Shown piece by piece: positions 15,681-47,594 of a DNA stretch of 64,000 nt (positions are counted from its first letter, which is position 1; the number at the start of each line of letters is the position of its first letter). A program made the translations under genes and the position numbers. The notes below the pieces were generated by a model. The model had not been told where the DNA came from and made no database searches. It saw nothing but the letters and a program-made list of their open reading frames with translations. The stretch comes from Candidatus Latescibacterota bacterium (GTDB taxonomy: Bacteria; Latescibacterota; UBA2968; UBA8231): contig OZ252098.1 of assembly GCA_965248355.1 (NCBI GenBank), forward strand, positions 1,390,098 to 1,454,097, in the 5' to 3' direction.

Positions 15681-15688
15681 CTTGCTTT

Positions 15689-16934: not shown

Positions 16935-17113
16935 TCGGGAGACAACCCCCCGATTCTCCCTTGGGTCACCAGAAACGATTGCCATGTGCGTACTTCCCTC
17001 CCTCTTCTAAAGGGTTATGTGGAAAATGCCTCTCCAAAAAAGCGCGCGCCTCATAACCAGAATTCCCTCACTCACAGTCCAAGTGGTTGGCCTAGCCTTC
17101 TCAAGGCCAATCC

Positions 17114-18220
17114 CTAATCGTTCACTCCGTTCACTCTTGGATGATTCCTAAACACCACGGCCGCATCTTCCAAGAGTGCAGCCGAAGGCTGCACGTAGAT
17201 CTCGTGCAGATCCACTAGGGAAGGAATCCTCAATTCCTCTGGAGTCAACTCGTCTCCGAGAATGGCGGAGACCCACAGTGGAATCAGTAGGAACCGTTCA
17301 TCTCGGTGAATCTTCGCCATGTATTCTATTGCGCGATGCCACCTCGCCATCTGACTTCCGGCTCCTCCACTGCGTCTGCCTTCCTGATCATGATACAAAT
17401 GGTAGGTCCTAGCTTCTGATACATGGACGACGCCTACATCCGCCTGCATCAACCTGTACCCCAGCTCCCATCCCTCACTGAATTCAATCTGCTCATCAAA
17501 TCCCCCTACCTCCAGAAACGCACTTCTTGGCACCGTCACATTATGAGGAAAAAAAGCCACCCAGGCAAGTCCGCTGTCTGGCCAAGCCAGGAGAAGTTCC
17601 TCAATTTGCTTCTGTAGTACATCCTGCCCTGGAAAAGGATAGGCACCTTGCACGGACCTAGATCGTATCTTCTCGAAGTAACCTGTCACCATCTCAGGCG
17701 AGACCCGGACATCCAAAGATCCATCCCTCAAGTGTCGCTTCACAACGCTGGAGATGACGACATCCGCCTTCAATTCCCCACTCGTAGGGTCATCGACAAA
17801 CTCCAAGGTCGGTATACACCACAGACCTCCGGTCAACGCACAATGCCGGCGCATGTCGACAGTCCCCAAATAGACTTCCAACCATCCTGGGTCCGGAAGC
17901 GCGTCCCCATCCAAGAACATCACACACTCGCCTCGCGCCACAGACGCACCCACATTCCGAGCCTTACACCTCCCCTCTCTCTTGGAAAGACGCACTTGGC
18001 GTATCACTAGACCTTGGGACTTCCAATACTGCACCCTGACGTGGCTATTGTCATCGCATCCATCTAGGACCACTACAATCTCATACAGTTGCCTGCTGAC
18101 CGTCTGCGCACTAAGGCCAGCAAGAACCAAATGCAGTCGATTCTCCTGATTATGTGTAGCAATTACCACACTGGCCAGAGGACTCAATCGAGAATCTCCG
18201 CCTCCAGGTGGGTCCACCAA
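17114..18220 (-). CDS. Family-2 glycosyltransferase (GT-A)
   Basis: 'SVVIATHNQENRLHLVLAGLSAQT' and 'FLDGD' (DxD). The start was moved to a TTG or GTG near 18215–18220 to avoid a 112-bp overlap with the upstream gene, and is uncertain. Confidence 0.55.
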   Translation of the reverse strand: MVDPPGGGDSRLSPLASVVIATHNQENRLHLVLAGLSAQTVSRQLYEIVVVLDGCDDNSHVRVQYWKSQGLVIRQVRLSKREGRCKARNVGASVARGECVMFLDGDALPDPGWLEVYLGTVDMRRHCALTGGLWCIPTLEFVDDPTSGELKADVVISSVVKRHLRDGSLDVRVSPEMVTGYFEKIRSRSVQGAYPFPGQDVLQKQIEELLLAWPDSGLAWVAFFPHNVTVPRSAFLEVGGFDEQIEFSEGWELGYRLMQADVGVVHVSEARTYHLYHDQEGRRSGGAGSQMARWHRAIEYMAKIHRDERFLLIPLWVSAILGDELTPEELRIPSLVDLHEIYVQPSAALLEDAAVVFRNHPRVNGVND

Positions 18221-20664: not shown

Positions 20665-20689
20665 TTTAGAAGTCCCTATTCCAGGCTCA

Positions 20690-20800
20690 TTCCGGGAATA
20701 CTCCTCGAGGCTCTCCCGGCCCCGGCCGTTGGCGACGGTTCCACGCCCGATGGACCGACTCCACGGTACCAGAGCATCTTGGGGCGCCCAGAGCCAAGAG
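20690..20800 (-). pseudogene. ISL3-family transposase fragment
   Basis: The nucleotide sequence 'ctctcccggccccggccgttggcgacg' and the translation '...GRGRESLEEY' parallel the ISL3 copy at 6090–6120 ('DGRGRESLEAYF'). Confidence 0.4.
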
Positions 20801-21389
20801 CGGGGTGACGTCTACGTGTACCATGAGCGCCGGAATCTCCCCCAACCGGGGAATGGCGCCATTCTGAACACGCGCGGCCGCCCCCCAAGTGCGTAATCCG
20901 CGGCCATCTTGGAGGTGCTAGGCCGAGCCCCGATGTGGGCGTCAGTGCGATGGGATCGATCAGATTTCCCACCCTGTGCGATTGAATGTCATGGCTCGCC
21001 ATCTGGCCTAGGCAGCCCTGGAAAGGGGACGCTGGCTTGAGAAATAGTAGCTATGGTGTGGCCTCTGACATTAAAGAGGCTCCGAGGGGAGGTCCTGTGC
21101 AATCGAGAAACCGAAATTAGGCGGTCCTTCTCAATCTCTACCGGTTGGCCGTCCTGGAACCTCCTTATATAAACCTCGGGCTAAGAGGTCCGTCAAGGGA
21201 CCACCCAGATTCGCGCACCCCGGATTTGGTCGGGGTCGGTGGTACCGGATCGGTTCTCCCCCTCCTGAGATGAGGTGCACCGAGAACGGGGACCTGCACC
21301 GCAAACCCCGGAGCGGCCCCCGGTCCAGCCAGTGACGCTTGGCGAACGAGGGAATGGGTGTGAGGGATGGTCTTGGCCTCCTTCCGCTC

Positions 21390-21570: not shown

Positions 21571-22749
21571 CTGCTAGTGTCATGTCGTAGAAATTACTGT
21601 ACATCTTCATGAGGATGCTGTAGGTTTCTCTTATTCTCTTTCCGAAAGGAGAAACCTATGGCGAGGGGACGACCGTTACCGGCGATAGAGTTGAGTCCGT
21701 CGGACCGGGACCAATTGGAATCGATGGCCAGATCACGGAGTCTCCCCCACGGGTTGGTGCGCCGAGCCGAGATGGTTCTGCTGGCCGCCGACGGCTGGCC
21801 CAATCAGGCGGTCGCCGCCGCGGTAGGGGTGACGCGGGCGACTGTGGGCAAGTGGCGGCGACGCTTTCTCGAGGGCGGGCTGCCGGGCTTGCATGATGAG
21901 CTGCGTCCGGGGGCGCCGCGATCGATCACGGATGAGCAGGTCGCCGAGGTGGTCTACAAGACCCTGAAGACCAAGCCCAAGGACGAAACCCAGTGGTCGG
22001 TGCGCTCCATGGGCCAGGAAACCGGCCTGTCCAAGGATGCGGTACATCGCATTTGGCGCACCTATGGTCTGCAACCCCACCGACACAAGCACTTCAAGCT
22101 GTCCACCGATCCCTTCTTCGTGGACAAAGTACGGGATATCGCCGGGTTGTACCTGAATCCCCCGGAGCACGCCATGGTTCTGTGCGTGGACGAGAAGAGC
22201 CAGATCCAGGCCTTGGAACGAACTCAGCCGATGCTGCCCTTGGGCTTGGGATACGTGGAAGGGGTTACGCACGACTACAAGCGGCACGGCACCACCACCC
22301 TGTTTGCCGCCTTGGACGTGGCCACCGGCGAAGTGATGACCCAGTGCAAATCCCGGCATCGTCACCAGGAATTCCTCCAGTTCCTACGCCACATCGAGAC
22401 CAACGTGCCCGAGGATCTCGATATCCATCTCGTCGTCGACAACTACGCCACCCATAAGCATGCCAAGATCAAGCGATGGCTGGCCAACCGTCCCCGGTTT
22501 CACGTTCACTACACCCCCACGTATGCTTCGTGGCTCAACCAAGTGGAGATCTGGTTCGGGATCATCACGCGCCAGGCCATTCGGCGCGGGTCGTTTCGGA
22601 AGGTCCCGGAGCTGGTCGAGCGGATCGAACGGTACACCGACAAGTGGAACGCCAAGGCCCGGCCCTTCGTCTGGACGGCGACGGCCGATTCCATCCTCGC
22701 CAAGGTCAAACGACTTTGTGAGCGAATCTCTGCGACATGACACTAGCAG
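21571..22749 (+). mobile_element. IS630/Tc1-mariner-family insertion sequence, intact
   Basis: Terminal inverted repeats 'ctgctagtgtcatgtcgtagaaatt' at 21571 match the reverse complement of 'gaatctctgcgacatgacactagcag' at 22724–22749. A single 360-aa transposase ORF lies inside. Confidence 0.7.
21658..22740 (+). CDS. IS630-family transposase (DDE_3)
   Basis: Winged-helix N-terminus, '[12 protein letters not shown]' and '[17 protein letters not shown]' DDE-region motifs. RBS 'aaaggag' upstream. Confidence 0.85.
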
Positions 22750-22846
22750 TCCGTTGGAAAAAGGCGAGGGATGAGGGAGGTACCAACTCCCCTCGTACGG
22801 GTCCTTTACTAGATTAGGCAGGCCACGTACCCAAGGAGCCGGATCG

Positions 22847-24284
22847 ATGTCGCTGAGCCGACGACCCGAGAGCCAGCAACAGGAGATGTGGGTGCCGACC
22901 CACACGCTGCCGGAGGCGCCGGGGTGTCCGTTCTACACGCAACTGATTCAGTTGCTGCTGGCGGCGCATGGGTTTGACCGCTTTGTCGAGTCTCGGTGCG
23001 CCCCGTATTACGCCGAGACGCTGGGCCGGCCGAGCATCGCGCCGGGGGTCTATTTCCGCATGCTCTTGATCGGCTACTTCGAGGGCCTGGGCTCGGAGCG
23101 GGGCATCGCCTGGCGGGTGGCCGACTCGGTGTCGCTGCGCCGTTTTCTGGGCTACGCCCTGAGCGAGGCCACGCCGGATCACTCGAGCCTGACGCGCATT
23201 CGTCAGCGTCTGCCGTCGGAGATCTACCAGGAGGTGTTCAACTGGGTGCTGACCGTGCTGGCCAAGGAGGGGCTTTTGAAGGGCAAGACCCTGGCGGTGG
23301 ACGCCACGACCCTGGAGGCCAACGCCGCCCTGCGCAGCGTCGTGCGGCGGGACACCGGGCAAGGCTACCGCGAGTACCTGGAGGACTTGGCCCGGGCCGA
23401 AGGAATCGAGACGCCGACGCGCCAGGACCTGGCCCGGCTCGACAAGAAACGGCCGCGCAAAGGCTCCAACCAGGACTGGAAGCATCCCCGAGGATCCGGA
23501 GGCCCGCATCACCAAGATGAAGGACGGGCGGACCCACCTGGCGCATAAAGCCGAACACGCGGTCGATCTGGACACCCAGGCCTTGGTGGCGGTCCAGGTG
23601 ACCGGCGCCGACGAGGGAGACACCTCGTCCCTGTCTTGGACGCTGATCCAGAGCGATCTGAATCTGCAGGCCGTGTCGCAGGATCCGAAAGCCAAGAACC
23701 ATCTGCATGGCCAACCGATGTCGGAAGTGGTGACGGACAAAGGGGTATCACAGCAACGACACGACCAAGAGGCTGAAGGGCGCTCAGATTCGCGGCTACC
23801 TGTCCGAGCCCGACCGGGGGCGCCGTCGGTGGAAGGACCGGGCCGCCCAGGCGGCCGTGTATGCCAATCGACGCCGGATTCGAGGGCCCCGGGGCCGCGC
23901 CCTGCAACGGCGTCGAGCCGAATGCGCGGAACGCAGTTTCGCTCACACCTACGAACGCGGGGGGCTGCGACGGACGCACCTGCGGGGCCACGCCAACATC
24001 TACAAGCGGCTGAGCCTTCATGGCAGCGCCTTCAATCTGGGCTTGGCCATGCGGAAGCTCACCGGCTGCGGGACCCCGAGGGGTCTGCGGGCACTGGGGG
24101 CCGTTTTTTCGGTCTTCAAGGCGGGTTTGCAGGTCGCTCGGGCCCTCTCGCGTCGCGCCGGCGGCCTCTTCCTCACCTGGGTCCGGGATCGATTCCTCAT
24201 CCGTTGCCGCCGCCTTCACCCAGAGCGACCGGACGTGATCCAAAACGTGGCTTTCTCAACGGGCTGCTAGACCTCATGTATTGA
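22847..24284 (+). pseudogene. IS5/IS1182-family transposase, frameshifted (at least 3 frames)
   Basis: Frame 1 has the DUF772-like N-terminus '...YFRMLLIGYFEGLGSERGIAWRVADSVSLRRFLG'. Frame 2 has 'KDGRTHLAHKAEHAVDLDTQALVAVQVTGADEGD'. Frame 3 has '...AVYANRRRIRGPRGRALQRRRAECAERSFAHTYERGGLRRTHLRGHANIYKRLSLHGSAFNLGLAMRKL'. Confidence 0.65.
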
Positions 24285-33512: not shown

Positions 33513-34481
33513 TCATCCGGCTCCGAGCACTCGGGCATAGTGGTCCAGGGACAGGTTGCCGCCGCTGAGCACCCCCACCACCCGCCGTCCCGCCAGCCGC
33601 GGGCCCAGACGCGCCGCCGCCGCCAGGGGCGCCGCGGCCGCTCCCTCGGCCAGGAGCCGGGCGTCGCGGGCGTACCAGCGGATCGCCTCCTCGATCTCCT
33701 CGTCGGTCACGAGGACGAGGTCGTCGAGGTGGCGCCACAGGATCTCCATGGTCATCTCGAAGGGCACGCGCGTGGCCAGGCCCTCGTGGACGGTCCGCAT
33801 CTCCGCCTCCACGTCGAGGCGGCGCTCCGACCAGGCCCGCCAGACCGCGGGGGCCGCGGCGGACTGCACGCCGATGACCTCGATCTCCGGGTTGCGGGCC
33901 TTGGCCGCCAGGCAGGTCCCCGCGGCCGCGCTGCCGCCGCCAACGGGCACGAGGATCACCTCCGTCCCGGGCGCGGCCTCGAGGATCTCCACGGCCATGG
34001 TGCCCGCCCCCGCGATCAGCTCGGGCTCGTTGGCCGAGTGCACGTAGCGTCGCCCCTCCCGCCGGGCCACCTCCTCCACCTCGACCCGCGCCTCGTCGAA
34101 GTCGCGGCCGTGGCGGCGCACCTCGGCGCCGAGGCGCTCCATGGCCTCCAGCTTGGCCGGGTTGGCGCCCTCGGCCGGGGCGTAGATCACCACCGAGGCG
34201 CCGAATCTTCCGCCGGCCCAGGCCATGGCCTGGCCGTGGTTGCCGGTGCTGGCGCTGATCAGGCCGCCGGCGAGCTCGGCCTCCGACAGACGCCCTACAA
34301 GGTTGACGGCGCCGCGGACCTTGAAGGCGCCCACGGGCTGGAAGCTCTCGCACTTGACGGCGTAGTCGCAGCCGAGCCGCTTCGACAGGGCCTCGCTGCC
34401 GATCAGGGGCGTGGGCGCCAGGTGCTCCTTCAGGAAGGACCTGGCCGCGTCCACGTCGGCCGCCGTGGGAAGCCGGGTCAT
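33513..34481 (-). CDS. PLP-dependent threonine/serine dehydratase-family enzyme (fold type II)
   Basis: Lys motif 'SFQPVGAFKVRGA' and 'STGNHGQA'. About 320 aa, typical of catabolic dehydratases and racemases. Confidence 0.7.
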   Translation of the reverse strand: MTRLPTAADVDAARSFLKEHLAPTPLIGSEALSKRLGCDYAVKCESFQPVGAFKVRGAVNLVGRLSEAELAGGLISASTGNHGQAMAWAGGRFGASVVIYAPAEGANPAKLEAMERLGAEVRRHGRDFDEARVEVEEVARREGRRYVHSANEPELIAGAGTMAVEILEAAPGTEVILVPVGGGSAAAGTCLAAKARNPEIEVIGVQSAAAPAVWRAWSERRLDVEAEMRTVHEGLATRVPFEMTMEILWRHLDDLVLVTDEEIEEAIRWYARDARLLAEGAAAAPLAAAARLGPRLAGRRVVGVLSGGNLSLDHYARVLGAG

Positions 34482-35257
34482 GGCCGGTGCTCCCGGACCG
34501 CGGCCAGGGCTTCGGCCAGGTGGCGGCGGTAGAGGTCCAGGTCGAGGCCGACGGCGAGGATGCGGTAGCCCTTGTCGAGCAGCTCGCGAGCCTCCTCCGC
34601 GGTGGCGGCGAGGCGGCCCAGGGCCTTGCCCTCGGCCTCGCAGGCGCGGCGCACTTCCTCCTCGGCGGCCAGGTAGTCGGGGTGGTCGAAGAGGCCCGGG
34701 CGGCCGCTGAAGTTGGCCAGGTCGAACTGGCCGATCCAGAGGACGTCGATCCCCTTCACGGCGGCGATCTCCGGGGCGTTCCGGACCCCCCAGGGGCTCT
34801 CGATCTGGGCGATCACGAGGGTGCGCTCGTCGGCCTGGCGCATCTTCTCTTCCAGCGCCTCGTCGGCGCGGTAGTCGTCGTGGGCGACGCCGAAGGCGGC
34901 TCCCCGGCGTCCGGCCATGGGGTAGCGGCAGAACCCGGCCAGGCGCCGGGCCTGGTCGGCGTCGTCGACCATGGGCGCCATGACGCCGAGGGCGCCGGCG
35001 TCGAGGACCCGCGCCGCGAAGTGGTACTCGGCGGCCGGGATGCGCACGAAGGGCACCGCGCCGGTCCCGCCGCAGGTGGCCACGAGGCCGCGGATCGTCT
35101 CCATCGACCAGGCCGTGTGCTCCATGTCGAAGAGCACGAACTCGGCGCCGGCGTTGTCGGCGAGGCGGGCCACGCCGGTGGTCCCGAACTCCATCACCAT
35201 GGTGCCGAAGGACCGGCCGCCCTCCAGCAGGCGGCGCTTGACGGGGTTCTCTCTCAC
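34478..35257 (-). CDS. HpcH/HpaI-family class II (pyruvate/2-oxoacid) aldolase
   Basis: 'DMEHTAW...VRIP...YPMAGRRG' pattern parallel to HpaI/GarL. GTG start at 35257 preceded by GGAGG. A 4-bp overlap couples it to the upstream gene. Confidence 0.7.
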   Translation of the reverse strand: MRENPVKRRLLEGGRSFGTMVMEFGTTGVARLADNAGAEFVLFDMEHTAWSMETIRGLVATCGGTGAVPFVRIPAAEYHFAARVLDAGALGVMAPMVDDADQARRLAGFCRYPMAGRRGAAFGVAHDDYRADEALEEKMRQADERTLVIAQIESPWGVRNAPEIAAVKGIDVLWIGQFDLANFSGRPGLFDHPDYLAAEEEVRRACEAEGKALGRLAATAEEARELLDKGYRILAVGLDLDLYRRHLAEALAAVREHRP

Positions 35258-36300
35258 TCGCCCCTCCGGCGGCGGGCGCAGGCCGCCAGCTTCGCGCGGA
35301 ACGGTTCCGCCTCCAGCACCTCGCCGTTGACCACGTGGCCGGGGGCGCGTCCCTCGGAGACGGCGAGGATGCCGGCGAAGGCGCTCTCCCCCATCATGCG
35401 GAAGCTCTCGTCCGTCCAGGCCAGGGAGTGGGGCGCCAGGATCACGTTGTCGAGCAGGAGCAGGGGATCGCGAGGATCGACGGGTTCCTCCTCGAAGACG
35501 TCGAGGGCGGCGCCGGCGATGGCGCCCTGCCCCAGGGCCGCGGTCAGCGCCGCCTGATCGACGATGGGCCCGCGGGCGACGTTGATCAAGTGGGCCGTCG
35601 GCTTCATCCGGTCCAGCTCCGCGGCGCCGATGAGGTGGCGGGTCTCCGGGGTCAGGGCACAGCAGATGAGGACGAAGTCGGCCTCCCTGAGCAAGTCCGC
35701 CAACGACACCAGCCGCGCCCCCAGCCCGGCGGCGGCCTGCTCGTCGGCGAAGGGATCGGCGGCCAGCAGGGTCATCTCGAAGGGCGCGCACAGCCGGCAG
35801 ACCTCGCGGCCGATGTTGCCCAGCCCCACCACGCCGAGGGTGCGCCCCCGCAGGCCGAGGCCCATGTGGTCGACCCTCTCCGGCCAGCGCCCTTCGCGGG
35901 TGAGCCGGTCCTTGGCCGGCAGCCGGTGGGCCAGGGCCAGGAGGAAGGCCATGGCGGCGCTGGCCACGGGACGCCGTACGCCGTCGGGGGTGATGGTCAG
36001 GGCCACCCCGGCGCGCGTGCAGGCGTCCACGTCCACCGAGTCGTAACCGACCCCGATGCGGGCCACCACCGCCAGCCGGCCGGCGTCCGCCAGGGTTGCC
36101 GCCGAGATCCTCGGGGCCAGGACGAGCAGGGCGTCGCAGTCGGCGACGGCCTCGGCCGGCACCTCGTCGGCGCCCTCCTCGAGGCAGTGCCACTCGACGC
36201 CCTCGGTCCGGTCCAGCGGGGAGAGGTCGATATCGGGAAAGGCCTGGCGGCCGTCGGGCCGCAGGAAGTCCATGGTGAGACCGACGCGAAACATCCTCAT
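35254..36300 (-). CDS. D-isomer-specific 2-hydroxyacid dehydrogenase (NAD-binding)
   Basis: 'GVVGLGNIGREV' NAD-binding motif and 'HLINVARG'. Confidence 0.75.
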   Translation of the reverse strand: MRMFRVGLTMDFLRPDGRQAFPDIDLSPLDRTEGVEWHCLEEGADEVPAEAVADCDALLVLAPRISAATLADAGRLAVVARIGVGYDSVDVDACTRAGVALTITPDGVRRPVASAAMAFLLALAHRLPAKDRLTREGRWPERVDHMGLGLRGRTLGVVGLGNIGREVCRLCAPFEMTLLAADPFADEQAAAGLGARLVSLADLLREADFVLICCALTPETRHLIGAAELDRMKPTAHLINVARGPIVDQAALTAALGQGAIAGAALDVFEEEPVDPRDPLLLLDNVILAPHSLAWTDESFRMMGESAFAGILAVSEGRAPGHVVNGEVLEAEPFRAKLAACARRRRGE

Positions 36301-37037
36301 CCTCCTCCGGAACGGATTCGGGCCTCGGCCTCGCCCAGGGCCGCGGCGTTGTCCCAGGCGGCGATCAGATCGGCCCGGGCCCGCTCGGTTTCCCCGCCGA
36401 GGCGCCCTGCTTCGGCGACGAGGGCCGGCAGGGCGCGGACGACGTTGTCCACGATGGTCACCGTGGCGGCGCGGGCCGTGCGCGACAGCGGGTTCAGGTC
36501 GACGGTCAGGACCTGGCGGCCCATGCGGCGCAGGGCCTCGCAGCGGTCGCCGTCCTCGAGGGGGACGAAGATCACGTCCGCCTCGAGCAGTCCCTCGGGG
36601 TGCACGTGGCGGCGGTTCGAGTCGAGCCCCTCGAGGGCGGTCCCGGCCTCGGGCAGCAGGACACGCTCGGCGCCGTGGGCCTCCAGGTGGGCGGCGATGG
36701 CGCGCTCCCGCTCGCGGGAGCCGTGGAAGATGTTGACCTCGAGGGGAGCCCCGGTGAGCCGGGAGAGCCGCACCAGCTCCCCGGGGACCAGGGCGGCGGC
36801 GTTGCCGTTCACCGAGAGCACCGGTTGGCCGGCGGCCAGCAGCCAGGCCGCCGCCGCTTCGCAGGCGCGCCGGGCCCAGGGTCCGCTGCGCTCGCCCAAG
36901 AGGTAGTCGCAGGCCTCGCCGCGGCCGTGGGCGATCAGCCCGTGAGGCGAGGTGATGCCCGCCTCGACGCCGGCCACGATCAGGTCCCGCGTGAGCAGGG
37001 AGGCGCGGCGCGGATGGCTCTCGGGGACGTCGGTCAC
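36297..37037 (-). CDS. Conserved hypothetical protein; possibly an archaeal-type 4-phosphopantoate–beta-alanine ligase (PPS, COG1701/DUF137)-like ATP-dependent ligase (tentative)
   Basis: At 246 aa it matches PPS proteins in size and sits next to a short GHMP kinase, which is the archaeal PoK/PPS arrangement. The assignment rests on length and context, not on a verified motif. Motifs present: 'HGRGEA', 'SVNGNAAALVP'. Confidence 0.3.
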   Translation of the reverse strand: MTDVPESHPRRASLLTRDLIVAGVEAGITSPHGLIAHGRGEACDYLLGERSGPWARRACEAAAAWLLAAGQPVLSVNGNAAALVPGELVRLSRLTGAPLEVNIFHGSRERERAIAAHLEAHGAERVLLPEAGTALEGLDSNRRHVHPEGLLEADVIFVPLEDGDRCEALRRMGRQVLTVDLNPLSRTARAATVTIVDNVVRALPALVAEAGRLGGETERARADLIAAWDNAAALGEAEARIRSGGG

Positions 37038-37879
37038 GGCTCGATGAGCCCGACGCGGCGGGTCGACAGGGCGGTCTCGGTGGAGCCCGGGAAGGGGACG
37101 TCGCTGAAGACGGCGTTGCCGAGCATGATCATGGAGGCTTGGCCGCCGCGCCGGGTCACCTCGTCGACGGCGGCGCGCACCCCTTCGTGGGCCATGAGGC
37201 CGCTGCCGGACGCGAAGGCCCGGGACTCGCGGATGACGCTGCCCAGGTCCAGGGACGGCGCCTCGCGGAGACCCCCCAAGGCGGCCAGGGCCGAGTCGGC
37301 GGCGGCGTTGATCCGCCGGCGGCGCTCCGGGTCGGAGAGGATGTCCCGCGTGCGGATGGGGCCGAAGTGCCGGTAGTGGATGGAGGCCCCGGGGGCCAGG
37401 GGCATGCGCTGGGCCGCGAGGGGGTCTCCGGCGACGAGCTTCACCAGGCAGCCGCCGTGGTACTGGGCGCAGACATCCCCCAGGCCGGTGAGGTTCTCCA
37501 CCTCGGCCACGTGGGCGGCGGTGGCCAGGGCGCGCTCGGACAGCCCCAGGTCGAGCAGGGCGTTGGCCGCGTAGGCCGCGGCCAGCGAAGAAGCTCCGCT
37601 GAGGCCGAAGCCGCTGCTCAGGGGCAGGGGCGTCTCGACGTCGACGGCCAGCCGCTGCCCGGGCGCGACCCGCTCCAGCACGGCCGCCACCGTGGGGAAC
37701 TCGATCTCCTCGCCGTTGAAGGTGATGCCGCCGCCCCCGCGGCGGACCGAGACGGTGGCCCCCTCGCGCACGGTGAAGCCGAGGCCGAGGGAGTGCATCC
37801 GCGCCGGGTCCTCGTGGGGGATCACCTTGAAGACGCCGGAGATGTTTCCCGGCGCGAAGGCGGCCGCCGCCTCAGCCAT
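37034..37879 (-). CDS. GHMP-family small-molecule kinase (pantoate-kinase-like in size and N-terminus)
   Basis: GHMP ATP-binding loop 'PLSSGFGLSGASSLAAA'. N-terminal 'APGNISGVFKV'. 281 aa. Confidence 0.65.
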   Translation of the reverse strand: MAEAAAAFAPGNISGVFKVIPHEDPARMHSLGLGFTVREGATVSVRRGGGGITFNGEEIEFPTVAAVLERVAPGQRLAVDVETPLPLSSGFGLSGASSLAAAYAANALLDLGLSERALATAAHVAEVENLTGLGDVCAQYHGGCLVKLVAGDPLAAQRMPLAPGASIHYRHFGPIRTRDILSDPERRRRINAAADSALAALGGLREAPSLDLGSVIRESRAFASGSGLMAHEGVRAAVDEVTRRGGQASMIMLGNAVFSDVPFPGSTETALSTRRVGLIEP

Positions 37880-38561
37880 GGACGGCCTCCGGCGCCAGCC
37901 GCTGCGCCTGCAGCCAGCCCGGCAACCGGGCGACTCCGTCGAGCAGGGCCAGGGGCGCGTAGGGGGCGAAGGCCGGAGCCCCGGTGGTGCCGCTGAGGAC
38001 GGCCACGAAGCGGATCGCCCCCCGCCGCGCCGCCTCGGCGTCGGGAAGGCTGTCCCCCACGTAGAGGGACTCGGCGGCGTCGACCTGGAGACGGTCCAGG
38101 GCCAGGTGCAGGCAGCCGGGATCCGGCTTGTGCTCGGAGACGTCCTCGGCCCCGATCACGGCCCCCACGAGGTGACGCAACCCCTCCCGGTCGAGGATCC
38201 CCTCGATGCGGTAACGGTACTTGGTGGAGGCGATGGCGCAGGCCAGGCCCCGGGAGCGCAGTTCCTCCAGCACGCCGGGGACGGCGTCGTAGACCACGGT
38301 GCCCGCGGCCATGACCTGGTCGGCGCGCTCGAGGAAGAGCCTTCCGAACTCGACGCTGCGCCCCCGCTCCGCCTCGCCGTTGAGTGCGGCCAGGATGTTG
38401 GGTACGGAAAGGCCGATGGTGCGCCGGATCTCCTCCTCCCCGGACAGGTCGAGGCCCATGCGCCGCTGGGCATAACGCACGCAGTCGATGACGCCCACGG
38501 AGGAGTCCGCCAGGGTGTAGTCGAAGTCGAAGAGGACCGCCTTGAGCGGCGTCAGGCCCAT
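37872..38561 (-). CDS. HAD-superfamily phosphatase (phosphoglycolate-phosphatase-like)
   Basis: Motif I 'LFDFDYTL', 'KPDP' and 'GDSLPD'. Confidence 0.7.
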   Translation of the reverse strand: MGLTPLKAVLFDFDYTLADSSVGVIDCVRYAQRRMGLDLSGEEEIRRTIGLSVPNILAALNGEAERGRSVEFGRLFLERADQVMAAGTVVYDAVPGVLEELRSRGLACAIASTKYRYRIEGILDREGLRHLVGAVIGAEDVSEHKPDPGCLHLALDRLQVDAAESLYVGDSLPDAEAARRGAIRFVAVLSGTTGAPAFAPYAPLALLDGVARLPGWLQAQRLAPEAVHG

Positions 38562-38566
38562 GCCGG

Positions 38567-39379
38567 TCACGCTTCGGCCGGCGAGGCCGTGGCCCCCGCC
38601 TGGGCGCCGGCGTTCACCCCCAGCCCGCGGCGGTAGGCCTCCAGGGGCAGCAGATCCTCGGGGCCCACGTTGCCGATGTTGGCCTGGGGGCCGAAGCGGT
38701 CGATCAGGTCCCGGCGCATGCTGTGCACGTGATGCTCGCTCACCCCGGCGATCCACGGGCCGGGCAGCTCGAACATCACCTTCTCCAGGCCAACGGAGTC
38801 GACGATCCCGTCGATGTCGGCCGCCGTCCCCGCGTCGCCGCGGATCAGCTCCGCCGCCTCCACCAGAAGCAGGCTGGCTCCCGCCTCCATGCACGCCCTG
38901 GCGTCGTCGGCCAGGGGTACGGCGTTGGCCAAGCCTTCCTTCTTGCCCACCTCCCCGAGGACCTTCAGCCCGAACTCCTCTACCGCCCGGACGATGACCC
39001 GCTCCTTCCACCGCAGCGTCACCGGGGCCAGGTTGTCCGAGACCTCCACCCAGCGGTAGCCGGCCTCGACACAGGCCGGGAGGTAGCGTTCCAGGAGGCC
39101 GTGGACCTCGGCGTACTCCAGGAACTGCCCCCCGGGGAAGGGCTCCACGTGCCACGACAGGTAGCGGTCGATCTTCTCCGTCAGCAGCTTCGCCGGGTGC
39201 AGCCGCGAGAGCCCCACGGCGATCTTGGCGAAGTCGAAGCAGTCGGCCCCGACCGCGATCAGGTCCCGCTGCCGGTGCGGCCCGAGGCCCCAGTCGATGA
39301 CCATTGTCAGCCCCGAGGCGCGCGGCTTGGCGGTGCGCTCCGGGGCCAGATGTCCGTCGAGTCCGTCGAAGGGATGCAC
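38567..39379 (-). CDS. comA: (2R)-phospho-3-sulfolactate synthase (ComA family)
   Basis: 'KPRASGLTMVIDWG...DFAKIAVGLS...FPGGQFLEYA...WVEVSDN...VLGEVGKK...VMFELP' follows the ComA family pattern, including the diagnostic 'KPR..GLT.V.D.G' N-terminus and 'EVGKK'. Confidence 0.75.
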   Translation of the reverse strand: MHPFDGLDGHLAPERTAKPRASGLTMVIDWGLGPHRQRDLIAVGADCFDFAKIAVGLSRLHPAKLLTEKIDRYLSWHVEPFPGGQFLEYAEVHGLLERYLPACVEAGYRWVEVSDNLAPVTLRWKERVIVRAVEEFGLKVLGEVGKKEGLANAVPLADDARACMEAGASLLLVEAAELIRGDAGTAADIDGIVDSVGLEKVMFELPGPWIAGVSEHHVHSMRRDLIDRFGPQANIGNVGPEDLLPLEAYRRGLGVNAGAQAGATASPAEA

Positions 39380-39543: not shown

Positions 39544-42500
39544 ATGGAAACAGGCTCTACTCTCCCATGTCTCTCGCTGGACCTCGAGGTCGGAAAGCAG
39601 GACCGTCGCATCCATGCGTTCGCCGCGATCCGATCGGATACCGACGACCGCCTCGTCTTCAACGGCGGTAACCTCGCCGCAGAACTGGCAAGACTGGACG
39701 ATCTCGCGCACGGTGCCGACTTCCTGCTGGGCCACAACCTGGTCCTCTTCGACCTGCCGCATCTGAAAGCCGCGAAACCCAACCTCCGGCTGTTGCGGTT
39801 GCCGGCGGTGGATACGCTGTGGCTCAATCCCCTCGCCTTTCCGCGTAACCCCTATCACGGTTTGGTCAAGCATTACCAGGACGGACAACTCAAGCGAGGG
39901 CGGCTGAACGATCCCGAACTCGATGCCCGGCTCGCGCTCGACGTCTTTCGTGACCAATGGCGCGCTCTCGGCTCCGCTTCACCGGATCTCTTGCTCGCGT
40001 GGCATTGGTTGACAACGGCGGGCGATATCGGGGACGGCTTCGACAGATTCTTCTCCTCGCTGCGTGAGTCTCCCCGGCCCTCGGACGCGGAAGCCCGCGC
40101 GGCGATAGAGGGACGGTTGGCGGACAGCGCCTGCCGGACCCACGGGCGCGAGGCCACGACAGATCCGGCCCTCTTTGGCTGGGCGCTGGCCTACGCCCTC
40201 GCCTGGCTTTCGGTGGCCGGTGGCAACTCTGTCATGCCGCCGTGGGTACGCCACCAATTCCCCGAGGCGGGACGACTGGTTAGCCGGCTGCGGGATACAG
40301 CTTGTGGAGACTCCGCCTGCGTGTGGTGCCGGGAGCGGCATGACGCCCGCAGGGAACTCTCCCGCTGGTTCGGCTTCAACGGCTTCCGTCCCGAACCTTC
40401 GAGCGCGGACGGAAGCCCGATGCAGCAGTCCATCGTTGAAGCGGCGATGGCCGGGGAGCACGTCCTCGGGATCCTTCCCACCGGCACCGGAAAGTCGCTC
40501 TGCTACCAGATCCCGGCTCTTTCGCGTTACGACAAGACCGGCGCCCTTACAGTGGTGATCTCACCCCTGGTCGCGCTCATGGCGGACCAGGTGGCGGGAC
40601 TGGAAGCACACGGCATCGGGTCGTGTGTCGCCATTAACGGCCTTCTGTCCATGCCCGAGCGGGCCGATGCGCTGGACCGGGTGCGGCTCGGAGACGCCGG
40701 ACTGGTGCTCGTCTCGCCCGAGCAGCTGCGCAGCCAGTCCTTCCGCCGCGTGCTGAACCAGCGCGAGATCGGCGCCTGGGTCATGGACGAAGCCCACTGC
40801 CTGTCGCGATGGGGGCACGACTTCCGACCCGACTACCGCTACGTGGGGCGCTTCATACGCGAGAAGGCGGGATCGGGGCCTGTCCCGCCGGTGTTGTGCC
40901 TCACCGCGACCGCGAAGCCCGATGTCGTCGAGGACATCGCCCGGTACTTCCGAGACTCCATCGGAGCGGAGCTCACAGTCTTCGACGGCGGAGCCCAGCG
41001 CACGAACCTCGAGTTCGTGGTGGTTCCGACCACCGGTGGCGAAAAGTTTTCTCACATCCACCAGATCCTGATGGCTGACCTGCCCCAGGACACGCCCGGC
41101 GGTGCCATCGTCTACTGTGCGACCCGGCGTCAGACCGAAGAGGTGGCGGAGTTTCTGCAGATGAAGGAGATCGCGGCGGACCACTTCCACGCGGGTCTGC
41201 CGCCCGAGACCAAGAAGAGCGTCCAGCTACGCTTCATCGCGGGCGAGCTCCGGGTGATCGCCGCCACCAATGCCTTCGGCATGGGCATCGACAAGCCGGA
41301 CGTGCGGCTGGTGATCCACGCCGACATCCCGGGCTCGCTCGAGAACTACCTGCAGGAGGCGGGGCGCGCCGGGCGGGACCGGGAGACCGCGCGCTGTGTG
41401 CTGTTGTACTCGACGGACGACGTCGAGCGCCAGTTCGGGATGTCCGCCCGGTCGCGCCTCACGCGCCGGGAAATCCACGGCATCCTGCGGGCGCTCCGGA
41501 ACCTCGACCGGAAGAAGCGTCTGAAGGGCGAGGTGGTTGCCACCGCGGGCGAGATCCTCCTGGAGGAGGACGAGAAGGTATTCGAGCGGGACTCAGCCAC
41601 CGACGATACCCGGGTGCGGACCGCCATCGCCTGGTTGGAGGAGGCGGTGCTGCTCACCCGTGAGGAGAACGAGGTGCGGGTGTTTCCCTCGTCCCTTCGG
41701 GTGAGTTCGGTGGAAGAAGCCCGAGCCAAGATCGAGAGCTCGCCCATTGCGGACGCCTACCGCCACCAGTTCCAGCTCATCGCTGAGAAGCTGATCGACG
41801 CCGACCCGGACGAAGGCATCTCCACCGATGAGCTGATGGGCGTGTCTGGCTTGAGCCCCGAAGGTGTACGCGCCGCCCTCTACGACCTGGAGCGCCTCGG
41901 CATCGCGAGGAACGAAACGGCGCTCACCGCCTTCGTCCATACCGGGGTGGAGAGAAGCTCGCTGAAGCGTCTTGACGAGGCGGAGAGTCTTGAGAAGGCA
42001 TTGATCGAGCACCTCCGTCTTGCTGCGCCGGACATGGGTAAGGGTGAGTCCTGGGCTCTGCATTTACGAGTCGCGTCGCAGGTTCTGCGAGATGCTGGGG
42101 TTGTCGATCCTCTTCCCGAGCGGCTATGGCGCATTCTTCGCAGCATTGCCGCTGACGGCCGCGGCGAGGGGGGCGGCTCTGGGAGCCTCGGGATCCGGAA
42201 GCGCGATGCGGAGACCGTGCAGGTAACACTGCAACGCGACTGGCAAGCCCTGGAGGAGACCGCATCGCGGCGCCGTGCGGGGTCGAGACGCCTGCTGGAA
42301 CACCTGCTCGCCGGCCTGTCGCCTGGGAGCCGGGGCACGGATCTCCTGGCCGAGACCACCCTGGGAGAGCTCATGGGCGCGCTAATGTCCGACTTGCTCC
42401 TCAAGAGCAGGCTCAAGAGTCCTGAGAAACTGCTGGACCGAGCTCTCCTGTGGCTGCACGAGCAGGAGGTCATCCGCCTCCACAAGGGTCTCGCGGTCTT

Positions 42501-44748
42501 TCGCCCCGCCATGACCATCCGGCTCACGGACGAGAAGCCGGGGCGGGGATTCGCCACGGCCGACTTCGAGCCGCTCAGACTGCACTACGAGGGGCAGGTT
42601 CGGCAAATCCACGTCATGGTGGAATTCGCGCGGCGGGGTCTGGAGGCCATGGCGGAGGCGCTTCGTCTGGCCATGGAATACTTCGGCATGAACGAGGAGG
42701 AATTCCTGCACCGCTGGCTTCCGGAACGGAGTCGAGAGATCGCCCGCGAGACCACCCCGGAATCGTGGCGGACCATCGTCGAGAGCCTCAAGAACCCCGT
42801 CCAACAGCGGATCGTTGCGGATGATCGAGAGCAGACGAACGTGCTGGTTCTCGCCGGTCCTGGTTCAGGAAAAACGCGGGTGCTGGTGCATCGCATCGCC
42901 TACCTGGTGCGGGCCAGACGCGAGAATCCCCGCGGCATCCTGGCCCTTGCCTACAACCGGCACGCGGCGGTGGAAATTCGGCGGCGCATCTTGGGATTGA
43001 TCGGTGATGAAGCCCGGGGGGTGACCGTGCTCACGTGCCATGCGCTGGCCATGCGACTGGTGGGAGCCAGCTTCCAAGAGCGAGAACGGCGGCGGCTCGA
43101 CGACGATGCATTCCGGGAGGTGTTGCGCCAGGCAGTAGCACTGCTGCGCGGCGAGGGGCTGGAACCGGAGGAAGCGGACGAACAGCGAGAACGACTTCTT
43201 GCGGGCTTCCGCTGGATCCTTGTGGACGAATACCAGGACATCGCTGCGGATCAGTACGAGTTGATATCGGCCCTGGCCGGACGGACTCAGAGAGATGAGG
43301 ATCGCAAGCTCACCCTCTTTGCAGTAGGGGACGACGACCAGAACATCTACGCCTTCAATGGCGCGTCGGTCGAGTTCATCCGCCGCTTCGAAGCGGACTA
43401 CGGTCCGAAGCCCACCTACTTGACCGACAACTACCGCTCCACCGGCCACATCATCGCTGCGGCCAATGCATTGATCGAGCCGGCGCGCGAACGGATGAAG
43501 ACCGGATATCCCATCTGCATAGATCGGCCTCGTGCGAAGAACCCACCGGGCGGCGACTGGCGGGAACTGGACTCGGTCGCTCAAGGCCGTGTGCAGGTTC
43601 TACCAGCGCTACACGATCCGATCATACAAGCGCAGGTTGCGATCACGGAGTTGCAACGCCTCGCTACCCTAGCTCCCGACTGGGACTGGTCCAGGTGCGG
43701 GGTCGTCGCGCGGGAATGGAAGTACCTCGATCCGGTACGTGCATTCTGCGAAGTAAATGGTCTTCCGGTCCAGATGGGAAACGAAGACATCCCGAGCTTC
43801 TGGCTCCTGCGAGACACCCGGACGATGGTCGAATGGCTGCGTGGACGGGATACCTCCTTGGTGAACAGCCCCGACCTCCGTGATTGGGTGAATGCACGTC
43901 CTTCAGGACCCTGGGTCGAGCTTCTTCAGGAGGCTCTGGATGAACATGAGCTTGAAACCGGAGCAGGTGCGGAAGTGAGGGTGGACCCCTTCATCGAGTG
44001 GCTGGCCGAGTGGGGCCGGGAACTTCGTCGCCGCCAGCGCGGGCTCCTGCTGTTGACCGCACATCGCGCCAAGGGATTGGAGTTCGACCACGCGGCCGTG
44101 CTTGACGGAGGCTGGAACAAGATCGACGTCGACAAGGGGGAGGACGAGGACGCGCCAAGACGGCTCTACTACGTGGCCATGACCCGCGCCCGGAAGACCC
44201 TTGCTCTGATTCGATTTCCCGGGCCGCATCGGCTGCTTGATGAATTGCAGGGCAATCCCTCGGTGCTGCAACGAGACGCCGGGTGGCCTGACTTCGCGAG
44301 GGAACCTGAGGCCCCGGCGTATTCGGGGCGATCACGCCCGCACCACGCCCCTGGCGGCTTGCTGCCGGAAACCCTGGAACTCGCGCGTCAATATCGACGG
44401 CCGGGCCTGCGCAGGGTCGATCTGGGATTCGCGGGGCGTCTTCGGCCCAACCATCCGGTGCATCGTGCGATCTCCGCCCTGTCGTCCGGCGATAAGCTGG
44501 AGACACGCGTGACCGAGGCGGGACGTTGGGAATTGCTCGACCTCTCAGGAAGGGTGGTGGGGCGCCTTGCCCGTGACTTCAAACCCCCACCGGGAACGCA
44601 GTGCAGGTCCGCAACAGTTCTGGCCATCATGTCCTGGAGCCGTGACCTGTCGGACTCAAAATACCACGACAGCATACCGTGCGATTCCTGGGAGGTCGTG
44701 GTGCCGGAGTTGGTGTTCGAACCAGTGGCGAGCAACCCGGAAGGTTGA
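39544..44748 (+). CDS. Giant tri-domain nuclease-helicase: DnaQ/DEDDh 3'-5' exonuclease + RecQ-family SF2 helicase + UvrD/PcrA-family SF1 helicase (1734 aa)
   Basis: N-terminal exonuclease 'LDLEVGKQ...FLLGHNLVLFDLPHL'. RecQ motifs 'LGILPTGTGKSLCYQIPAL', 'DEAHCLSRWGHDFRPDY', 'ATNAFGMGIDKPDVRLVIH'. UvrD motifs 'VLAGPGSGKT', 'ILVDEYQD', 'YRST', 'TAHRAKGLEFD', 'YVAMTRAR'. Confidence 0.8.
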   Translation: METGSTLPCLSLDLEVGKQDRRIHAFAAIRSDTDDRLVFNGGNLAAELARLDDLAHGADFLLGHNLVLFDLPHLKAAKPNLRLLRLPAVDTLWLNPLAFPRNPYHGLVKHYQDGQLKRGRLNDPELDARLALDVFRDQWRALGSASPDLLLAWHWLTTAGDIGDGFDRFFSSLRESPRPSDAEARAAIEGRLADSACRTHGREATTDPALFGWALAYALAWLSVAGGNSVMPPWVRHQFPEAGRLVSRLRDTACGDSACVWCRERHDARRELSRWFGFNGFRPEPSSADGSPMQQSIVEAAMAGEHVLGILPTGTGKSLCYQIPALSRYDKTGALTVVISPLVALMADQVAGLEAHGIGSCVAINGLLSMPERADALDRVRLGDAGLVLVSPEQLRSQSFRRVLNQREIGAWVMDEAHCLSRWGHDFRPDYRYVGRFIREKAGSGPVPPVLCLTATAKPDVVEDIARYFRDSIGAELTVFDGGAQRTNLEFVVVPTTGGEKFSHIHQILMADLPQDTPGGAIVYCATRRQTEEVAEFLQMKEIAADHFHAGLPPETKKSVQLRFIAGELRVIAATNAFGMGIDKPDVRLVIHADIPGSLENYLQEAGRAGRDRETARCVLLYSTDDVERQFGMSARSRLTRREIHGILRALRNLDRKKRLKGEVVATAGEILLEEDEKVFERDSATDDTRVRTAIAWLEEAVLLTREENEVRVFPSSLRVSSVEEARAKIESSPIADAYRHQFQLIAEKLIDADPDEGISTDELMGVSGLSPEGVRAALYDLERLGIARNETALTAFVHTGVERSSLKRLDEAESLEKALIEHLRLAAPDMGKGESWALHLRVASQVLRDAGVVDPLPERLWRILRSIAADGRGEGGGSGSLGIRKRDAETVQVTLQRDWQALEETASRRRAGSRRLLEHLLAGLSPGSRGTDLLAETTLGELMGALMSDLLLKSRLKSPEKLLDRALLWLHEQEVIRLHKGLAVFRPAMTIRLTDEKPGRGFATADFEPLRLHYEGQVRQIHVMVEFARRGLEAMAEALRLAMEYFGMNEEEFLHRWLPERSREIARETTPESWRTIVESLKNPVQQRIVADDREQTNVLVLAGPGSGKTRVLVHRIAYLVRARRENPRGILALAYNRHAAVEIRRRILGLIGDEARGVTVLTCHALAMRLVGASFQERERRRLDDDAFREVLRQAVALLRGEGLEPEEADEQRERLLAGFRWILVDEYQDIAADQYELISALAGRTQRDEDRKLTLFAVGDDDQNIYAFNGASVEFIRRFEADYGPKPTYLTDNYRSTGHIIAAANALIEPARERMKTGYPICIDRPRAKNPPGGDWRELDSVAQGRVQVLPALHDPIIQAQVAITELQRLATLAPDWDWSRCGVVAREWKYLDPVRAFCEVNGLPVQMGNEDIPSFWLLRDTRTMVEWLRGRDTSLVNSPDLRDWVNARPSGPWVELLQEALDEHELETGAGAEVRVDPFIEWLAEWGRELRRRQRGLLLLTAHRAKGLEFDHAAVLDGGWNKIDVDKGEDEDAPRRLYYVAMTRARKTLALIRFPGPHRLLDELQGNPSVLQRDAGWPDFAREPEAPAYSGRSRPHHAPGGLLPETLELARQYRRPGLRRVDLGFAGRLRPNHPVHRAISALSSGDKLETRVTEAGRWELLDLSGRVVGRLARDFKPPPGTQCRSATVLAIMSWSRDLSDSKYHDSIPCDSWEVVVPELVFEPVASNPEG

Positions 44749-44899: not shown

Positions 44900-45808
44900 A
44901 TGACCATCACAGCCGACGTTCAGACCCTTCCGCAGCGCATCCTCGGCAAGACCGGCGAGCGCGTCCCCGTCCTCGGCCTCGGCTCGGCCTGCGGAGGACT
45001 GGGCCTGGGCGACGCCGAGGCGATCGAGCTCTACGAGAAGGCCATCGACCGCGGCGTCACCTACATCGACACCGCCCCGGGCTACGAGCGCGCCCAGCGG
45101 CAGCTCGGACACGTGGTGCCCCGCCGCCGCGACGAGCTCTTCCTGGTCACCAAGTCGCCCACCGCCGACGGCGCCGAGGCCGTGCGCCTGCTGGAGCAGA
45201 ACCTGCGCGATCTCGGCACCGACGCCGTGGACCTGTGCTACGTCCACTCCCTGGGCAACTACGACGTCGACCAGGTCCTGGCCCCCGACGGCGCCCTCGC
45301 CGGTTTGCGAGAAGCCCAGAGGCGGGGGCTGACCCGCTACGTCGGCTTCACCGCACATCACAAGACCGGAAGCTCGGAGCGCGTCCTCCGGGAGGCGGAG
45401 GTCGACGTCATCATGGTGGCCCTCAACTTCGTCGACCACCACACCTACGGCTTCGACCGCACCGTGCTGCCCCTGGCCGCCGAACGCAACGTCGGCGTGG
45501 CCGCCATGAAGGTCTACGGCGGCGCCGAGGCGATGGAGTACCAAACGCGGGAGGACGAGGACCAGCGCCCCTCCGCCCTGGAGGCCAGCGCCCCCGCCTT
45601 CGATCACGAACGCGCCCTGCGCTGGGCCCTCGGCCTGCCGGGCGTCAACGTCGCCGTGGTCGGCATGTACTCCGAGGAGGAGCTGGACCGCAACATCGAG
45701 TGGGCCCGCCGCTGGCAGCCGCTGACAGCGGAGGAGGAGGCGCAACTGCTGGAGGAAGGCCGGCGTATCGCCCGCTCCTGGGGCGACCACTACGGGGATA
45801 CCACATGA
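44900..45808 (+). CDS. Aldo/keto reductase-family oxidoreductase
   Basis: 'RILGKTGERVPVLGLGS...' with strong SD 'GAGGAGG' upstream. AKR-like 'IDTAPGY', 'HHKTG'. Confidence 0.7.
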   Translation: MTITADVQTLPQRILGKTGERVPVLGLGSACGGLGLGDAEAIELYEKAIDRGVTYIDTAPGYERAQRQLGHVVPRRRDELFLVTKSPTADGAEAVRLLEQNLRDLGTDAVDLCYVHSLGNYDVDQVLAPDGALAGLREAQRRGLTRYVGFTAHHKTGSSERVLREAEVDVIMVALNFVDHHTYGFDRTVLPLAAERNVGVAAMKVYGGAEAMEYQTREDEDQRPSALEASAPAFDHERALRWALGLPGVNVAVVGMYSEEELDRNIEWARRWQPLTAEEEAQLLEEGRRIARSWGDHYGDTT

Positions 45809-47139: not shown

Positions 47140-47594
47140 TACCACCACAAGACCGGAAGCCGGAACGCGTCCTCCGGGAGGCGCAGGTCGACGTCATCAT
47201 CGTAACCCTCAACTTCGACGACCACCACACCTACGGCTTCGACCGCACCGTGCTGCCCCTGGCGGCGGAGCGCAACGTCGGCGTGGCGGCCATGAAGGTC
47301 TACGGCGGCGCCGAGGCGATGGAGTACCGCACCGGTGAGGACGAGGACGGGCGCCCCTCCGCCCTGGAGGCAAACGCGCGGGACTTCGACCACGAGAGAG
47401 CCTTCCGCTGGGCCCTCGGCCTGCTTGGCGTCGGGGTCGCCGTGATCGGCATGTACTCGGAGAAGGAGCTGGACCACAACATCGAGTGGGCCCGCCGCTG
47501 GCAGCCGCTCACGGCGGAGGAGGAGGCGCAATTGCTGGAGGAGGGCCGGCGCATCGCCCGCTCCTGGGGCGACCACTACGGGGACCTGCTGTGA
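47140..47594 (+). pseudogene. Orphan, roughly 90%-identical duplicate of the 3' 455 bp of the AKR gene (45353–45808)
   Basis: Nucleotide and protein alignment: 'RVLREAQVDVIIVTLNFDDHHTYGFDRTVLPLAAERNVGVAAMKVYGGAEAMEY...' vs copy 1 '...REAEVDVIMVALNFVDHHTYGFDRTVLPLAAERNVGVAAMKVYGGAEAMEY...'. No 5' half. Confidence 0.7.

Follow-up and report, generated by a model that had tools for sequence, protein, structure and literature searches.

We analyzed a 64,000-nucleotide stretch of contig OZ252098.1 (hereafter, the window; assembly GCA_965248355.1, positions 1,390,098 to 1,454,097), which is assigned to a Candidatus Latescibacterota bacterium and probably derives from an uncultured sponge-associated host. 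The window carries, on its minus strand, two overlapping genes that resemble those for pantoate kinase (PoK) and for phosphopantothenate synthetase (PPS), the paired enzymes of the archaeal route to coenzyme A (CoA). Specifically, the kinase open reading frame (ORF; 37034..37879, minus strand) has an ATG start and encodes 281 aa with the N-terminus MAEAAAAFAPGNISGVFKV, and the ligase ORF (36297..37037, minus strand) has a GTG start and encodes 246 aa. Their junction reads ...gagccGTGAcc..., such that the GTG start of PPS and the TGA stop of PoK share 4 bp (GTGA). A first-pass annotation made from the letters of the sequence had proposed this archaeal-type pair, and the positions, sizes, and 4-bp overlap that it gave are exact. 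Further, the G+C content at third codon positions (GC3) is 0.96 in the PoK ORF and 0.93 in the PPS ORF, relative to 0.54 at second positions (GC2), which is the coding signature of the host. Because of this host-like GC3 bias, both ORFs can be taken as real genes, rather than as the spurious ORFs that are common in DNA of 70-75% GC.

By its sequence, the 246-aa protein is clearly placed in the PPS family (PF02006/COG1701, EC 6.3.2.36) as a predicted 4-phosphopantoate--beta-alanine ligase. It scored 218.5 bits against PF02006 (Pfam cut-off 26.4) and 318.4 bits against the NCBIfam subfamily model NF010324, above the cut-off of 227. Residues 1-242, and thus nearly the full length, align with the solved PPS structures of Thermococcus kodakarensis (3WDK, 215.7 bits) and T. 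onnurineus (4MB0, 214.3 bits), at E ~1e-62. In 13 archaeal sequences, 101 columns reach a conservation of 90% or more; the protein is identical at 92 of them, and the other nine mostly hold like-for-like exchanges (I/L/V, K/R, T/S, F to C or Y).

For the 281-aa protein, profile, sequence, and predicted fold support assignment as a putative pantoate-kinase-type GHMP kinase (COG1829, EC 2.7.1.169). Its two best NCBIfam matches were the two pantoate kinase models, at scores under their cut-offs, and its best sequence match in the PDB was the PoK of T. kodakarensis (6JBC, E 3e-13), followed by a mevalonate kinase (2.6e-4). An AlphaFold2 model built from 32 homologues (predicted local distance difference test score, pLDDT, 94.9; predicted template-modeling score, pTM, 0.92) returned 6JBC as the top Foldseek hit against the PDB (E 5.6e-22, TM 0.84/0.80); the runner-up, a homoserine kinase (E 9.7e-15, TM 0.71), lay seven orders of magnitude behind. 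The kinase is only ~24% identical to the solved T. kodakarensis PoK and is identical at 48 of 56 archaeal-conserved columns.

Six of the seven residues linked to function in the characterized kinase are retained. Mutagenesis attributed to Tomita et al. in 2012 reportedly showed that Ser28, Ser104, His131, Glu134, Asp143, Arg155, and Thr186 of T. kodakarensis PoK matter for catalysis or pantoate binding. In an alignment of the window proteins with homologues from 89 loci and the T. kodakarensis sequences, Ser30, Ser94, His123, Glu126, Asp135, and Thr177 of the window kinase fall on six of these positions (Ser28, Ser104, His131, Glu134, Asp143, and Thr186, respectively) and are unchanged in almost all 58 aligned sequences, across all groups. 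The position of Arg155 is taken by Lys147, and it is a lysine in every aligned sequence except the Thermococcus one. Thus, profiles, solved structures, structure prediction, and conserved residues all uphold the identity of the pair as first proposed.

The pair lies within a co-directional block of eight genes, in which the genes surrounding it are not those of a typical archaeal CoA cluster. In order of transcription, these are:

38567..39379, minus strand: ComA-family (phosphosulfolactate synthase-like) protein, first gene of the operon; PF02679, 165.4 bits; 5-nt gap to the HAD gene
37872..38561, minus strand: HAD-superfamily phosphatase (phosphoglycolate-phosphatase-like), 229 aa; PF13419, 116 bits; overlaps PoK by 8 bp
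37034..37879, minus strand: PoK-type GHMP kinase, 281 aa; PF00288, 46.5 bits; overlaps PPS by 4 bp
36297..37037, minus strand: predicted PPS, 246 aa; PF02006 score as above
35254..36300, minus strand: D-isomer-specific 2-hydroxyacid dehydrogenase, 348 aa; PF02826, 197 bits, and PF00389, 69.5 bits; overlaps PPS by 4 bp
34478..35257, minus strand: HpaI/GarL/RhmA-type class II (pyruvate) aldolase, 259 aa; PF03328, 117 bits; 4-bp overlaps on both sides
33513..34481, minus strand: fold-type II pyridoxal phosphate (PLP) enzyme, serine/threonine dehydratase-like, 322 aa; PF00291, 248.9 bits
30956..33538, minus strand: 860-aa protein with a C-terminal CehA/McbA-family (PHP-type) metallohydrolase domain (residues 483-801; NF038032, 146.9 bits), last gene of the block

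The first-pass annotation placed the pair next to comA. The two do share an operon, although they are not immediately adjacent, as comA lies two genes upstream of PoK, with the HAD phosphatase gene between them. The ComA-family protein scored 156 bits against the TIGR03849 equivalog (cut-off 280) and 91 bits against Methanocaldococcus jannaschii ComA (1QWG); its EVGKK motif, which is that of the catalytic lysine (Lys137), is retained and aligns with the M. jannaschii protein. Many bacterial relatives of this ComA were found at 57-70% identity. The other partners also matched their best NCBIfam models under the cut-offs: PGP_bact for the HAD phosphatase (102 bits), glyoxylate reductase and PGDH for the dehydrogenase, TIGR02311 HpaI for the aldolase (118 bits), and threonine dehydratase PRK06110 for the PLP enzyme (255 bits). 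A Pfam search with the 860-aa protein gave no match. A promoter and terminator scan of 29-40 kb found nothing that exceeded the shuffled background, and no genes for PanC or PanK (CoaA/CoaX) were found in the window.

The pair is not as rare among bacteria as the first-pass annotation had stated. At least 7810 of 8000 candidates scored matched the PPS query at E <= 1e-10, with named matches at 60-75% identity in metagenome-assembled genomes (MAGs) of Latescibacteria, Gemmatimonadetes, and Planctomycetota. A scan of one genome per GTDB species yielded 533 confirmed loci, and the best 80 of these, to which the taxonomic breakdown is confined, are mostly bacterial (Poribacteria, Latescibacterota, Gammaproteobacteria). 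The closest of these 80 come from sponge MAGs that carry the label Gemmatimonadaceae (COS4_bin_9, 91%) or Candidatus Latescibacterota (85-87%), labels that look inconsistent for what is apparently one lineage. They are followed by further Latescibacterota (~71%) and then about 60 Poribacteria species (54-62%); also present are sponge Gammaproteobacteria/Thiotrichales (60-63%), one Blastocatellia MAG, and archaeal members from the Woesearchaeota, Nanoarchaeia, and Methanosarcinales (54-61%). Relative to the window proteins, the Poribacteria orthologues are 53-57% identical for PoK and 57-68% for PPS. Several kinase relatives are already labelled 'pantoate kinase' by JGI and NCBI, and a member of the 90% cluster of the window PPS is already named 'phosphopantothenate/pantothenate synthetase [Gemmatimonadaceae bacterium]'. 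Moreover, bacterial PoK/PPS has been published for Poribacteria by Thomes and Lescure (2020; PMC7883664), who reported it as the only route to phosphopantothenate in genomes without PanC/PanK, and ketopantoate reductase as missing. Our literature search found no later paper on PoK/PPS in bacteria other than Poribacteria.

Neighbor-joining trees of PPS and PoK (no support values, arbitrarily rooted on Thermococcus) were congruent and recovered the same internal groups. In both, the bacterial sequences form essentially one clade, comprising Poribacteria, the Latescibacterota/"Gemmatimonadaceae" sponge MAGs, sponge Gammaproteobacteria, and a Blastocatellia MAG, which adjoins archaeal sequences of the DPANN/Methanosarcinales type. 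Given these congruent trees and the host-like GC3, the pair appears to have been acquired long ago as a unit, and not recently. The origin from archaea that the first-pass annotation raised is thus plausible as an old event: the pair was probably gained once, long ago, from archaea, and then passed on as a unit, by descent or exchange, among marine and sponge bacteria. A recent horizontal transfer was ruled out, as the GC3 of the pair equals that of the flanking host genes, unlike that of a helicase gene (0.77) and a 10-21 kb island elsewhere in the window. Co-transfer of comA with the pair from archaea was likewise ruled out, given that none of 12 archaeal PoK/PPS loci encodes ComA and that the window ComA reaches only the 91 bits noted above against the M. 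jannaschii protein.

Comparison of gene neighborhoods showed that PoK-PPS is the constant core, whereas ComA, HAD, the dehydrogenase, the aldolase, and the PLP enzyme are variable around it (loci are numbered with the prefix L). The order PoK-then-PPS of the window recurs in 11 archaeal and more than 40 bacterial loci. The complete operon order is kept in relatives from 95% down to ~60% identity (L001-L006, L010-L017, L090, L096, L099, L100, and L104), where a CocE/NonD hydrolase gene often lies between comA and the HAD gene and an unannotatable 526-aa protein is often encoded before comA. Shorter versions also occur: ComA-S15-HAD-PoK-PPS lacking the dehydrogenase and aldolase (L009, L091-L094, L097), PoK-PPS-PLP enzyme lacking ComA (L008/L072), and PoK-PPS with an aldolase and the 860-aa protein and nothing else (L038, L044, L055). 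Copies of the 860-aa protein (58-98% identical) are found near PoK-PPS in Latescibacterota-type loci, and one Poribacteria subclade has a copy of the dehydrogenase (52-57% identical) at a distance of 3-7 kb from PoK-PPS. A second arrangement that includes ComA, PoK-PPS-ComA-RmlC-like-PLP enzyme, was seen in L141/L144, and the PLP enzyme is the commonest gene adjoining both PPS and ComA in related loci. ComA also occurs without the pair, as in the order 526-aa protein-ComA-PLP enzyme (L109, L133, L134, L138, L156), and ~20 ComA loci with adequate flanks encode neither PoK nor PPS and have mixed neighbors (M19 and M14 peptidases, GH95, squalene synthase, CobS). Elsewhere in the bacterial clade, PoK-PPS has unrelated neighbors in Gammaproteobacteria and follows hydantoinase B/A in L007, L085, and L088. 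In archaea, PanB-CoaBC-PoK-PPS was found in 8-12 loci, and an unrelated HAD hydrolase gene adjoins PPS in 12. In a Blastocatellia MAG (L062; DATCXQ010000094.1, 8951..11675), a PPS homologue is flanked by PanB and a type III pantothenate kinase and has no PoK beside it, which suggests a hybrid route in which a PF02006 enzyme serves a bacterium as pantothenate synthetase in place of PanC.

Several further observations concern these loci. The soluble, uncharacterized ~526-aa protein is the most constant neighbor of this ComA subfamily, always encoded directly upstream (L003 4519..6099 and 17 further ComA loci, e.g., L090, L109, L116, L133); it has no Pfam, NCBIfam, or PDB match and is absent from the window. 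Sponge Thiotrichales/Gammaproteobacteria MAGs and an 8.9-Mb genome carry the hydantoinase B and hydantoinase A (oxoprolinase-like) genes immediately upstream of PoK-PPS (L007 4997..10732, L085, L088). A second type of Poribacteria locus has PPS with no adjacent PoK, followed directly by a conserved ~641-aa DUF6785/DUF6784 protein (L027 10725..12650 and 26 further loci). Finally, the whole operon sits on a ~1.1-1.2 Mb replicon in several close relatives (L011, OZ220090.1, 'chromosome: 2', 1.13 Mb; L001, 1.16 Mb; P0004, 1.18 Mb), unlike the copy in the window, which is on a 5.5-Mb contig (5,503,661 bp).

Taken together, the window proteins are probably bacterial orthologues of the archaeal CoA-pathway enzymes, predicted from sequence to carry out the canonical conversion of pantoate to 4-phosphopantoate and on to 4'-phosphopantothenate. 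The kinase would use ATP to phosphorylate the 4-hydroxyl of D-pantoate, and the ligase would adenylate the carboxylate of 4-phosphopantoate and condense it with beta-alanine (ATP to AMP and PPi). The product would be 4'-phosphopantothenate, bypassing free pantothenate as an intermediate, and the 4-bp overlap couples the two steps translationally. This function is the best supported because PoK-PPS is the constant unit, its residues are conserved, relatives occur with CoA genes, and the Poribacteria orthologues are reported as the sole route. The pair shares with the archaeal systems of T. kodakarensis (TK2141/TK1686; 6JBC, 3WDK) and Methanospirillum hungatei the two protein families, the gene order where these are clustered, the full-length PPS alignment, the kinase fold, and the conserved catalytic and substrate residues; it differs in its bacterial host and in its operon partners, which are ComA, the HAD phosphatase, the dehydrogenase, the aldolase, and the PLP enzyme, rather than PanB and CoaBC. 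The analysis shows the families to which the two proteins belong, their fold and conserved residues, the order of the genes, where they fall in the phylogenies, and their genomic contexts. The substrates of the two enzymes, and their role in CoA synthesis in this genome, are most likely the canonical ones.

Four points weigh against this assignment. First, the PPS scored 287 bits against the archaeal equivalog NF041123, a model of 213 positions built from archaeal sequences, and so falls 13 bits short of the cut-off of 300. Second, the PoK is far under both of its cut-offs (142.8 bits against 380 for NF040725; 66.8 against 500 for NF041122). Third, our literature search found no enzyme assay of any bacterial PoK/PPS member. 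Fourth, the pair is translationally coupled to genes for ComA and a HAD phosphatase, which have no known CoA role, and this linkage recurs in two arrangements. The association with ComA is real, recurrent, and unexplained, although it may be confined to the syntenic region of one lineage.

One extension, compatible with the canonical function of the pair, takes in its downstream partners, making the operon a self-contained route to (phospho)pantothenate without PanB or PanE; we consider it a tentative and, on balance, unlikely proposal. Here, the 4-hydroxy-2-oxo acid of the aldolase would be ketopantoate, formed from 2-oxoisovalerate and formaldehyde; reduction by the D-2-hydroxyacid dehydrogenase would then give pantoate, and PoK and PPS would carry out the remaining steps. 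Free pantothenate could be released by the HAD phosphatase, perhaps to supply the sponge host with vitamin B5. The dehydrogenase and aldolase genes indeed follow PPS with 4-bp overlaps, PanB holds the neighboring position in archaeal and Blastocatellia loci, and PPS also has an unrelated HAD hydrolase as a neighbor in the 12 archaeal loci. Poribacteria, too, reportedly lack ketopantoate reductase, and one of their subclades carries the related dehydrogenase 3-7 kb away. However, a profile-profile comparison of the aldolase with PanB (hhalign of two 8-sequence profiles, a shallow test) gave a probability of 1.2% and hence no relationship, and many ComA-HAD-PoK-PPS loci (L009, L091-L094, L097) lack the dehydrogenase-aldolase pair. 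In L044, moreover, a GH2 glycosidase gene between PPS and the aldolase suggests sugar-acid catabolism, and the extension leaves ComA and the PLP enzyme unexplained.

The neighborhood of the pair also recalls the ComA-ComB-ComC module of coenzyme M and sulfolactate biosynthesis, in that genes for a phosphatase and a 2-hydroxyacid dehydrogenase accompany that for a ComA-family protein. In principle, these three could take phosphoenolpyruvate (PEP) and sulfite to phosphosulfolactate, sulfolactate, and then sulfopyruvate. The window proteins nonetheless deviate from that module: the phosphatase is of the HAD type and the dehydrogenase of the D-2-hydroxyacid-dehydrogenase type, neither belonging to the ComB or ComC family, the window ComA is under the equivalog cut-off, no sulfopyruvate decarboxylase is present, and the HAD gene does not accompany ComA in loci that lack PoK-PPS.

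It is nevertheless conceivable, if improbable, that PoK and PPS have been repurposed to build, with ComA and the HAD phosphatase, a sulfonate-containing amide resembling pantothenate. The kinase and ligase could act in turn on a dihydroxy acid derived from sulfolactate or sulfopyruvate via the dehydrogenase and aldolase, joining its phosphorylated form to an amine; or the ligase could join phosphopantoate to an amine that carries a sulfonate, such as cysteate or taurine. Such a role would fit the tight operon (4-8 bp overlaps), with its order kept from 60% to 95% identity, the second arrangement in L141/L144 (PoK-PPS-ComA-x-PALP), the presence of the HAD gene only where ComA precedes PoK, and the sub-threshold equivalog scores of PoK; the pair in L007 also lies near TauD, two sulfite reductases, and DsrE proteins. 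Yet neither enzyme shows remodelling of its conserved residues relative to the archaeal and Poribacteria proteins, and the ComA-linked lineage gave no residue-level sign of a change in substrate. Most PoK-PPS loci lack ComA, the ~20 informative ComA loci that lack PoK/PPS have heterogeneous neighbors, and the operon encodes no enzymes (aminotransferase, decarboxylase) to take sulfopyruvate to an amine. Further, the ComA-linked loci may all belong to one lineage, in which case their synteny could reflect plain inheritance. The repurposed chemistry that the first-pass annotation offered as its second option is, therefore, not supported by residue conservation, and it keeps a minority probability through the recurrent linkage to ComA. 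Quite improbable as well is a reading of the whole operon as one pathway, in which ComA would fix sulfite onto PEP and the kinase and ligase chemistry of the archaeal type would serve to build a new sulfonated pantothenate-like metabolite in sponge-associated bacteria, for example an antimetabolite of the pantoyl-taurine or pantoyl-cysteate type or a symbiosis-specific cofactor analogue.

It is very improbable that the PF02006 protein is a pantothenate synthetase acting on unphosphorylated pantoate, with the GHMP kinase serving another substrate: the Pfam family name spans both activities and the L062 homologue lacks a neighboring PoK and is flanked by PanB and a type III pantothenate kinase, but the ligase is here translationally coupled to a PoK-type kinase with intact conserved residues, and the window holds no PanK gene. 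A catabolic reading, with ComA running in reverse after a sulfolactate kinase, was rejected, because the kinase retains the residues of PoK and such a route has no place for an adenylate-forming ligase.

Outside the operon, several other features of the window were noted. Upstream of comA, 39544..44748 (plus strand) encodes a 1734-aa fusion helicase of RecQ-type (DEAD/Helicase_C) and UvrD-type parts, with a GC3 of 0.77 relative to ~0.95. It lies between comA and an aldo/keto reductase gene (44900..45793), whereas in the closest relative, L001, the reductase gene directly and divergently adjoins comA; the helicase region thus looks like a 5.2-kb insertion. A partial second copy of the reductase gene is found at 47163..47579. 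On the minus strand at 10000..21000, a low-GC island (55-59% relative to 70-75%) with a strongly negative GC skew encodes TPR, LRR plus PD40 beta-propeller, DsbA-like, GT2, and GT28/transglutaminase proteins; sponge symbionts typically carry eukaryote-like repeat proteins of this kind. After the island come DDE_3 and DUF772 transposases (21658..23548). Other mobile elements are an ISL3 transposase (5666..6676, minus strand) and an IS3-type transposase whose helix-turn-helix part (7195..7964) and integrase-core part (8625..9185) are ~660 bp apart. A match to the Rfam group II intron domain V/VI (RF00029, 63.3 bits, 8616..8714) at the start of the integrase-core part may be an intron, or an intron remnant, inside this insertion sequence element.

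Returning to the canonical function of the pair, the use of PoK/PPS or of PanC/PanK has been put forward as a marker to tell archaea and bacteria apart. The pair described herein is a further bacterial member of an already published exception, rather than a new system. It shares with the Poribacteria pair (PMC7883664) the same bacterial clade, a life as sponge symbionts, and many adjacent PoK-PPS loci. It differs in lineage (Latescibacterota/'Gemmatimonadaceae' MAGs) and in its partners, as none of the ~60 Poribacteria PPS loci has a ComA, HAD, aldolase, or PLP enzyme gene adjoining the pair. The locus thus strengthens the case that the archaeal-type route has taken hold in several bacterial lineages besides the published Poribacteria, namely Latescibacterota-type sponge MAGs, sponge Gammaproteobacteria, and the Blastocatellia hybrid. 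The single new and unexplained aspect is the occurrence of the pair within a tight operon with ComA. Of all the features of the locus, this repeated coupling to a sulfite-adding enzyme of the ComA family alone could open up new biochemistry. Should these symbionts have no route other than the pair, free pantothenate would never be an intermediate, which bears on the exchange of vitamin B5 within sponge holobionts.

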